The position numbers were made by a program, and so were the translations under genes. Source: Eledone cirrhosa (Eukaryota). From it: DNA of 64,000 nucleotides. Below the pieces are notes generated by a model. That model ran no database searches. It was not told where the DNA came from and saw only the letters and a program-made list of their open reading frames with translations. The stretch spans positions 4,712,001-4,776,000 of the forward strand of contig OZ024754.1 of NCBI GenBank assembly GCA_964016885.1, given 5' to 3'. Of this stretch, positions 10,774-11,869 are shown one piece after another. Positions within the stretch are counted from its first letter, which is position 1, and every line of letters begins with the position of its first letter.

Positions 10774-10853
10774 ACACACACACACACACACATACATACA
10801 CACATATATATATATATATATATAGATATATATATATATATATAGGAAAAAGT

Positions 10854-10954
10854 TTAACCCCGGCGGCAGAGCTCAAGCCGTTACGACGGCTATTTCTGGA
10901 CTAAATTAGAATTTTTAGTCTGGTAAATAAATAGCCGAACTTTTCAAGGGGTAA
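10854..10954 (-). pseudogene. Full-length but mutated family A hammerhead (only copy that keeps the 5' core strand)
   Basis: Minus strand reads TTACCCC-TTGAAAA (for CTGAAGA)-GTTCGGCTATTT...AAATAGCCGTC-GTAAC (for GAAAC)-GGCTTGAGCTCTGCCGCC-GGGGTTAA, with helix I CCCC/GGGG. Confidence 0.65.
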
Positions 10955-11567
10955 TTCCTTATATGGGAAGATTAAAATTATAGTTGTCAAAAGGATTGGT
11001 CAAAATTTCTTGTAAACAACACAATTAAATCTTTCATGGTGGGGGTGGGGTGACTGAACTTTCCTGTAGAACAATGAAGGAGTGGGTGGAGCCGGTCAAG
11101 CGTTGAAAGTGAATTATATACACCAAATTCTAAGGAGTGTGTATGAAATTAGGCTACTTAGAAAGCAGGCGAAGAAGGATACTGAGAGTAGGACGTTATA
11201 GAAATGATTAATAAATGCGATTAAAAGATAATTTTAAAAAATTAATAATAAAATTAAATAGTAAAGATAATTTTTAAAATCTCTAGAGTCTAAAGCAGTT
11301 GCTACATGTTTAACTGGTATTCCGTTTTCAGCCAATGCTATATATAATTTACTGGTGTGGGGGTACTGAGGCTACAGAAGCCCGATGGGCTGCCTTGGGG
11401 TAGGGGAAAGAGGGAAAAGGAAGAGGAGAGAGAATGGAAGGAAGTGATAAGAAGAGATAAAGGGAAGAAGAAAAGAAAAAGAAAAAGAAGTACATCTACC
11501 TATGTATGCTGGGGTTTCCCCTGTCTTGTTCGGCAAGTGGGGAAAAGAAGGATGTTGCAGCCATTGT

Positions 11568-11684
11568 CTACACACCCGGGTCATGGGGGGGGGGGAGGTA
11601 AGTCCTACGAAATCGGTGTTTACATGCAGTTAAAAGTTCGTCTTTTTTGTTTAGGAGTTGGTCCTTCGTAAACAGCATTTGTAA
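11568..11684 (-). pseudogene. C-terminal fragment of a PLE RT/GIY-YIG polyprotein
   Basis: Translation LQMLFTKDQLLNKKDELLTACKHRFRRTYLPPPHDPGV* resembles the LLNKRxELxxxCRH ending of PLE GIY-YIG proteins (recognised from memory). Confidence 0.6.
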
Positions 11685-11869
11685 TGTGTGGTAAGGAACC
11701 AGGTGGACCATAACGTACCAGAGTACTCGATACTTTGGGTAGTAGAGTGGGTAATAGGAAAAGAGTCAGAACCCCGACGGCAGAGCTCAAGCCGTTTCGA
11801 CAGCTATTTCAGTCCAGGAGTAGCTGTCGAAACGGCTCGAGCTCTGCCGTCGGGGTTCTGACTCTTTTC

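Follow-up and report, generated by a model that had tools for sequence, protein, structure and literature searches.

Palindromes carrying half a hammerhead ribozyme in Eledone cirrhosa are truncated ends of a Penelope-like element and probably result from priming at both target ends

Introduction

An inverted truncated copy with a tail on one side only has already been described for Penelope-like elements (PLEs) (PMC8557442; PMC3846280), and the first of these papers names the origin of the tandem and inverted structures of PLEs as an open question. In vitro work on a PLE protein (PMC11167929) found that it cleaves and extends both target strands and that reverse transcription starts on unprocessed RNA at two sites bounding the tail, and predicted a dimer. 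For the PLEs of Schistosoma, a ribozyme core in which U3-A8 replaces C3-G8 has been reported (PMC4209133).

Here we analyze a 64-kb stretch of the Eledone cirrhosa genome (the window) in which short palindromes carry the 3' half of a hammerhead ribozyme, and we follow the same family through the 3.0-Gb animal assembly in which the window lies and to which all genome-wide counts refer. An initial annotation of the window had held that the palindromes are of retro origin and that each arises when a single PLE cDNA snaps back on helix II of the ribozyme and copies itself.

Results

The family is continuous with copies that encode a reverse transcriptase (RT). A natural open frame of 710 amino acids (locus L234:1573-3702) carries RT and a GIY-YIG endonuclease in a single ORF, the arrangement by which endonuclease-bearing (EN+) PLEs are recognized, and includes the motifs DIESYY, SMGATDS, YRDDG and YIGLT. 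It has 403 homologues, one of which passes the RVT_1 cut-off; Pfam returned nothing significant for the element's own frames, this query included. Near-complete copies (L035, L044, L048) contain direct pLTR repeats about 3.06 kb apart together with inverted copies, and the family displays the EN+ PLE anatomy of a pLTR partial tandem, an inverted 5'-truncated copy and a one-sided tail. The Hydra-type motifs HSDKTG, CNCPDRSIC, CNLC and CKH are present, with a single Cys in the GIY-YIG core, so that DKT, the CxCX5C linker, CxxC, CxH, the lack of CCHH and the (TA)n target of that clade are all found. RWR stands in place of the Hydra RWK (homologues have either), the unit is about 3.06 kb as against less than 3 kb, and the ribozyme core is a variant as against the canonical one. 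By its motifs and (TA)n target, the element appears to fit the Hydra clade as defined in section 11 of PMC8557442, and a Neptune identity was dropped in the light of that definition. Further divergent Hydra-type PLE families are nested in or beside family copies at L235:1944-3299 and L035:8101-8784.

The window itself contains a 5'-truncated PLE 3' end at 10846..11687 (minus strand), made up of the ORF end, a 3' UTR of about 620 nt and a full hammerhead, which ends at the tail-less start site against (TA)n. Its last 39 codons and stop (11568..11687, minus strand) encode a GIY-YIG C-terminus (LLNKKDELLTACKH, with a CxH motif) that is 76% identical to the 710-residue frame (E 2.8e-11), which bears out the earlier placement of the 10854-10954 copy downstream of a PLE C-terminal peptide. 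The 10846-11687 copy has at least 79 relatives in the genome (40 scored of 7,538 candidates), at 82-88% identity; they reach variable 5' points, and the longer ones continue into RT. Because these relatives run into RT, the RT and GIY-YIG frame matches the window peptide and the Hydra features are present, the palindromes are truncated ends of a PLE. Their retro origin, proposed in the initial annotation, is thus established, with longer genomic copies encoding both RT and GIY-YIG.

The type I hammerhead of this copy (10857..10952, minus strand) has helix I ACCCC/GGGGT, a helix III with a GAGCTC loop and a helix II composed of a 9-bp basal and a 7-bp apical stem, and its MFE fold takes the type I hammerhead shape (z -2.5). 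The core strand reads TTGAAAA at 10941-10947 (U3, A8), where "C>T" and "G>A" had been taken as lesions. Both letters are the family state: the 5' strand, searched with positions 3, 7 and 8 left free, matches exactly at 5,815 places in the genome, of which 3,750 read TTGANAA and 17 CTGANGA. UUGANAA is therefore the core of the family and not a decayed CUGANGA. The expectation of CTGANGA in full copies fails in its literal form, and this had been named as grounds for rejecting the earlier reading, although the ribozyme survives as a U3-A8 variant. N7 differs by subfamily, all four letters occurring, and C3 is found with A8 in 28 of the first 100 matches listed, which speaks against a plain reading of U3-A8 as compensated and active. 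A CTGAGAA subfamily (C3 opposite A8, or a 6-nt core with a bulge; for example L134, L212 and L216) accounts for 24 of the first 100 full ribozymes listed. In 16 hand-picked, related copies, 89.7% of 419 cells of the hammerhead pairing were paired, with two-sided changes at 5 pairs, against 26-47% in slid controls. The type I architecture of three covarying helices around a core is thus present, with the canonical CUGANGA core replaced. Searches based on CUGANGA miss such a ribozyme entirely. Among the 150 Rfam matches listed of 603 in the window there was no hammerhead family, and the miRNA matches, all below gathering, were set aside as hairpin artefacts.

The lesions of the 10857-10952 ribozyme lie elsewhere. 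Two private core changes, A13U (10883) and U16.1C (10863), give GTAAC and GCC where the family has GAAAC and GTC, the latter pair having been attributed to this copy earlier. On account of these changes the ribozyme is probably dead. At position 10883, the family letter makes up 99% of read depth in three runs, all from one sample that is possibly the assembly's own and hence not independent.

Adjoining this copy is a palindrome of another subfamily. Its tailed arm (11687..11810, minus strand) reaches 12 nt 5' of GAAAC, and its tail, short of the final 12 nt or so, is joined to the 10846-11687 copy by ACA microhomology. The tail-less arm (11811..11868, plus strand) reaches 18 nt 5' of GAAAC by eye, further 5' than its tailed partner, and ends in (TA)n; its junction class is seen again in 8 of 49 events. 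Since this palindrome and most others belong to other subfamilies, the 10854-10954 copy is not their parent, as it had been taken to be.

A fuzzy scan found 21 core-bearing arms (3' ribozyme half) in the window and none in a shuffled 600-kb random genomic sample. By our own listing, these arms build 14 family loci, close to the roughly 12 half-ribozyme copies counted earlier. The 5' ribozyme strand is absent from 13 of them and kept at 10857-10952 (minus strand) alone, as had been noted. Eight loci are two-armed palindromes (starting at 3183, 7268, 7605, 11755, 20670, 33289, 49623 and 57623), every one asymmetric, with an 80-nt tail on one arm. Palindromes centred on or near the helix II loop had been expected for most copies; 8 of 14 are palindromic, but they are centred within the 3' strand of helix II, ahead of the loop.

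Palindromes with a tail are found at 3183..3367 and at 20670..20868, of which the former is a copy; lone short arms precede them at 3133-3175 and 20594-20646, and the regions 3120-3375 and 20580-20875 represent a single event, duplicated. A run of N starts at 3368, directly behind a tail end, and the window has 200 N in total. One (TA)n tract (7077-7740) holds three independent stacked insertions, namely a tailed arm with an inverted tail-less arm ending in the helix III loop (7077..7243, plus strand), a tailed palindrome of an older subfamily (7268..7481) and another with a templated duplication at its junction (7524..7740). Here TA with a tail on either side gives rise to a secondary palindrome (7399-7606), whose scores against miRNA models lie below gathering. 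The remaining loci include a palindrome with a partial tail (33289..33436), a tailed palindrome at whose junction the arm end has been re-copied several times in tandem (49543..49785), and one of the spacer subfamily seen in the 10846 copy (57623..57818). A single tailed arm without inverted partner (48405..48534, plus strand) ends against (TA)n at 18 nt 5' of GAAAC, and at 57463..57578 a tail-less arm and an inverted partial tail form an inversion without palindrome, nothing being duplicated.

Microsatellites dominated the repeat search of the window. Five palindromes of other families (32692-33105, 33522-33916, 58123-58574, 50290-50401 and 6758-6861) are flanked by TA and are longer by 30-50 nt on one side. 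CTGAAGA is found in both arms of the first three, and visual inspection suggests that 33522-33916 contains whole minimal hammerheads; on these grounds they are probably head-to-head insertions of other PLE families with the core kept. Local duplication accounts for matches of 3568-17044 to L120/L121 about 24 kb upstream (88-99%) and of 1-1533 to 19133-20595 (95%). A tRNA-like sequence at 30571-30641 (plus strand; Ala(GGC) by ARAGORN, Rfam 50 bits) is likely a SINE or pseudogene, since this anticodon is unusual in animals.

Genome-wide, the insertions have two fixed outer ends, one right behind the ribozyme and one 80 nt beyond, both at a TAT matching the (TA)n target; in full copies the 80-nt tail sequence continues toward the ORF. 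Of 75 short palindromes, 73 pair one tailed with one tail-less arm, and so do 47 of 49 from a partly overlapping set and 30 of 31 long inverted insertions (0.2-5.5 kb). Within one subfamily there are 7,107 tailed and 6,976 tail-less ends. Long sense copies also finish at the tail-less end, and tail-less ends are thus primary ends. The short palindromes (7,377 exact genome matches) are the short end of a continuum with the long inverted insertions. Exact 28-mers of the 3' half give an idea of abundance, one having 23,767 genome matches and another 2,408. The arms share a subfamily haplotype in 59 of 62 events against 19% expected at random, with a single clear chimera (L263), which indicates that both usually come from one donor. 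In a nearest-neighbour test of one against two RNA templates, covering 26 events, the partner was nearest for both arms in 11, for one arm in 8 and for neither in 7.

The inner ends of the two arms are independent of each other and cluster 12-22 nt 5' of GAAAC across subfamilies, so the earlier expectation that inversion centres are non-random relative to helix II holds. The hot spot covers the helix II 3' strand from the top of the basal stem to the loop (10896..10906, minus strand, is the equivalent position in the window copy). As called by a heuristic that may over- or undershoot by a few bases, of 145 arms sampled regardless of where they end internally, 84 stop at 12-22 nt, and the core strand is retained in 11; loci found by pattern come in order from the start of contig C1 and are not a random draw. 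The per-base stop rate is 0.14 at 12-22 nt, compared with 0.03 at 0-11 nt and about 0.001 upstream of the hot spot, this last value being drawn from events selected for long arms. Of 12 partnerless arms abutting (TA)n, 8 likewise stop at 12-22 nt, which makes the stop independent of the palindrome. No sharp pile-up of arm ends was seen at the scissile site, and 149 tailed arms read through the entire core, uncleaved scissile site included. The helix II and helix III strands share CGGCU/AGCCG (equivalent to 10880-10892 in intact copies), and a competing hairpin, AGCCGU-CGAA-ACGGCU, is the MFE fold in several subfamilies. According to this folding, the hairpin could act as a switch or contribute to the RT stop; it could even cause the stop in place of helix II.

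The hot spot bears on one possible origin, in which long head-to-head insertions lose their centre after insertion through palindrome instability. Such deletion would cover the asymmetric ends, the finding that either arm may be longer and the messy junctions, and long inverted insertions do exist. However, it leaves an 11-nt hot spot common to all subfamilies unexplained, as well as the same stop in the partnerless arms, and long near-perfect palindromes persist (spacer of 0-1 nt in 4 of 31). We regard it as improbable.

Arm lengths and junctions speak to the snap-back proposal. Among 69 short events (75 less 6 that lay outside 10-60 nt or were symmetric-ended, with duplicates removed by sequence), the tail-less arm reaches further 5' in 17 and the tailed arm in 26, with 26 ties; for 30 long events the numbers are 11, 15 and 4. 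A tail-less core arm is joined to an inverted tailed arm stopping before GAAAC in 24 events, and the reverse is seen in 5. The tail-less-longer class (17 of 43 and 11 of 26 untied events) cannot come from one folded-back cDNA, since a copied arm cannot exceed its first strand, and it refutes snap-back as the main route. Refolding on helix II must also keep the loop, and the near-absence of loop junctions argues against it: genome matches number 0 for the basal-stem junction and 12 for the apical-stem junction, against the 7,377 palindromes, all three being lower bounds from patterns that cover partly different subfamilies. Ten of the 12 were read, and 7 belong to the tail-less-longer class, the tail-less arm carrying the loop and the inverted arm the tail; the others comprise one tail/tail, one short/short and one with the tail on the loop arm, and the two with symmetric ends may be true snap-backs. 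A primer stem of at least 2 nt is feasible at 3 of the 69 junctions, core-to-core distance is below 50 nt in all but 4, and outer ends are asymmetric, where snap-back would give symmetric ones or a tail found always on the longer arm. Snap-back is favoured by the clustering of ends at helix II, the shared haplotype of the arms and the few loop-retaining junctions, and self-priming has been proposed for PLE junction palindromes (PMC3846280). On balance, a single self-copying cDNA seems very unlikely.

Fold-back could also take place off the chromosome, where self-primed or antisense-templated synthesis would yield palindromic DNA with two tails, either end then being trimmed by the endonuclease at the proximal site before integration. 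This gives one tail on either arm and accommodates the common haplotypes; tails have been ascribed to EN-mediated resolution (PMC8557442), and antisense self-priming has been suggested (PMC3846280). Yet it requires a primer stem at the junction. Of the 69 junctions, 43 have inserted bases, 19 an overlap of 0-1 nt and at most 7 an overlap of 2 nt or more, in either orientation. The unpartnered arms with the same stop, the TAT microhomology to the target at both outer ends and the in vitro start of RT at both tail boundaries (PMC11167929) count against it as well, and we consider this route unlikely.

Finally, the palindromes have the look of MITEs, and some of their junctions recur (8, 7 and 5 of 49 events), as a self-amplifying unit would lead one to expect. 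Against this, the 49 events fall into 25 junction classes, and the recurring junctions are found in several subfamilies with the tail on either side, which indicates that they arise repeatedly and are not amplified as units. The family runs into RT-encoding copies, a link to a DNA transposase was not seen (in agreement with the initial annotation), and the junctions vary and the ends are asymmetric, unlike the fixed internal sequence and transposase-shared TIRs of a MITE; TSDs are unreadable in (TA)n. A MITE or similar unit is hardly credible.

Discussion

Our preferred explanation, which we consider likely on the strength of the sequence comparisons, is that the palindromes constitute the shortest class among the ordinary head-to-head insertions made by a PLE of the Hydra clade and are produced by two-ended target-primed reverse transcription (TPRT), a stall in helix II and end-joining. 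GIY-YIG would cut both strands of (TA)n, and each target 3' end would prime one cDNA, one at the proximal and one at the distal site. The RT would pass the uncleaved scissile site and usually stop while unwinding helix II, after which the two cDNA 3' ends would be joined head to head by an RT template jump or by host end joining. The long inverted insertions and the intact pLTRs would come from arms that clear helix II, and the palindromes would be dead-end products, each made afresh. The overlap of the two cDNAs, up to kilobases, would call for one RNA with strand displacement or for two RNAs. The RT of PLEs is not known to have RNase H. Two observations count against two-ended priming, namely that the tailed arm is somewhat more often the longer one (26 versus 17 short and 15 versus 11 long events) and that the shared arm haplotype is equally a prediction of fold-back. 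The palindromes are not expected to cleave themselves in cis, because the 5' core strand is missing; the earlier statement that they lack CUGANGA is right about the loss of that strand, though the core of the family is UUGANAA.

A broader proposal is that two-ended priming is the normal mode of PLE insertion and that in this family the fold of the ribozyme is maintained more for its use as an RNA handle than for nuclease activity, with the invariant GAGCUC loop pairing two template RNAs in a dimeric RNP and helix II serving as a programmed RT stop, such that the majority of events end prematurely as harmless palindromes. The spread of a C3-A8 core subfamily as well as of U3-A8 ones would then be accounted for; we put this proposal forward tentatively, as doubtful. 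Small PLE hammerheads cleave as dimers.

The class of the element and its insertion anatomy are known, and the family or its ribozyme may already be listed in the supplements of PMC8557442. In the literature searched, in which subscription journals are thinly covered, we found nothing attributing PLE inverted structures to two-ended priming, no description of an RT stop in helix II of a PLE ribozyme, and no earlier population-scale test of how the inverted structures and tails of PLEs arise. With its tens of thousands of natural insertion products, the family provides an end asymmetry by which insertion models can be told apart, and this asymmetry matches the both-strand, two-start behavior of a PLE in vitro (PMC11167929). 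It also serves as a warning that palindromes resembling MITEs may be products of retrotransposition in animal genomes rich in microsatellites.

How does the family compare with systems already described? In L1 twin priming, a second cDNA is primed from the second target strand and an inversion results; there is hardly any overlap between the two parts, and the position of the second site varies. In the Eledone family, by contrast, the positions of the two start sites are constant and each arm repeats the sequence of the other. Non-LTR retrozymes (bioRxiv 10.64898/2026.07.22.740005) are likewise repeats with PLE-derived type I hammerheads (HHRs), but they form head-to-tail tandems of whole ribozymes; this identity was rejected for the present family of head-to-head halves. 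The min-HHRs of Cercyon PLEs in Schistosoma (Cervera and De la Pena 2014, PMC4209133) share a covariant U3-A8 core, a palindromic loop 3 and opposite-strand HHR pairs 100-700 bp apart, whereas the Eledone family has a helix III of 5 bp, no bulged base before G10.1 and mostly half ribozymes.

The inverted pLTRs of Penelope in Adineta vaga (PMC3846280) resemble our insertions in being head-to-head, with an optional tail on one pLTR and palindromes at the junctions. There the junction palindromes were read as self-priming, while the counts in Eledone favour two separately primed cDNAs. Poseidon PAc of Anolis (Frangieh et al. 2024, PMC11167929) belongs to another clade but is alike in its two RT starts bounding the tail, the extension of both strands, the AT-rich target and the use of uncleaved RNA; the accessible part of that paper mentions neither inverted insertions nor a ribozyme stop.

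The Hydra-clade PLEs (Craig et al. 2021, PMC8557442) share with the Eledone family a C-terminal GIY-YIG, RWx, DKT, the CxCX5C linker, CxxC and CxH near the C-terminus, (TA)n targets, an HHR and the inverted 5'-truncated copy with a one-sided tail. The Eledone family differs from them in its unit of about 3.06 kb, its 80-nt tail (theirs is 30-40 nt), RWR in the place of RWK, the U3-A8/C3-A8 core, the long helix II, the stable 5-bp helix III and its tens of thousands of half-ribozyme ends.
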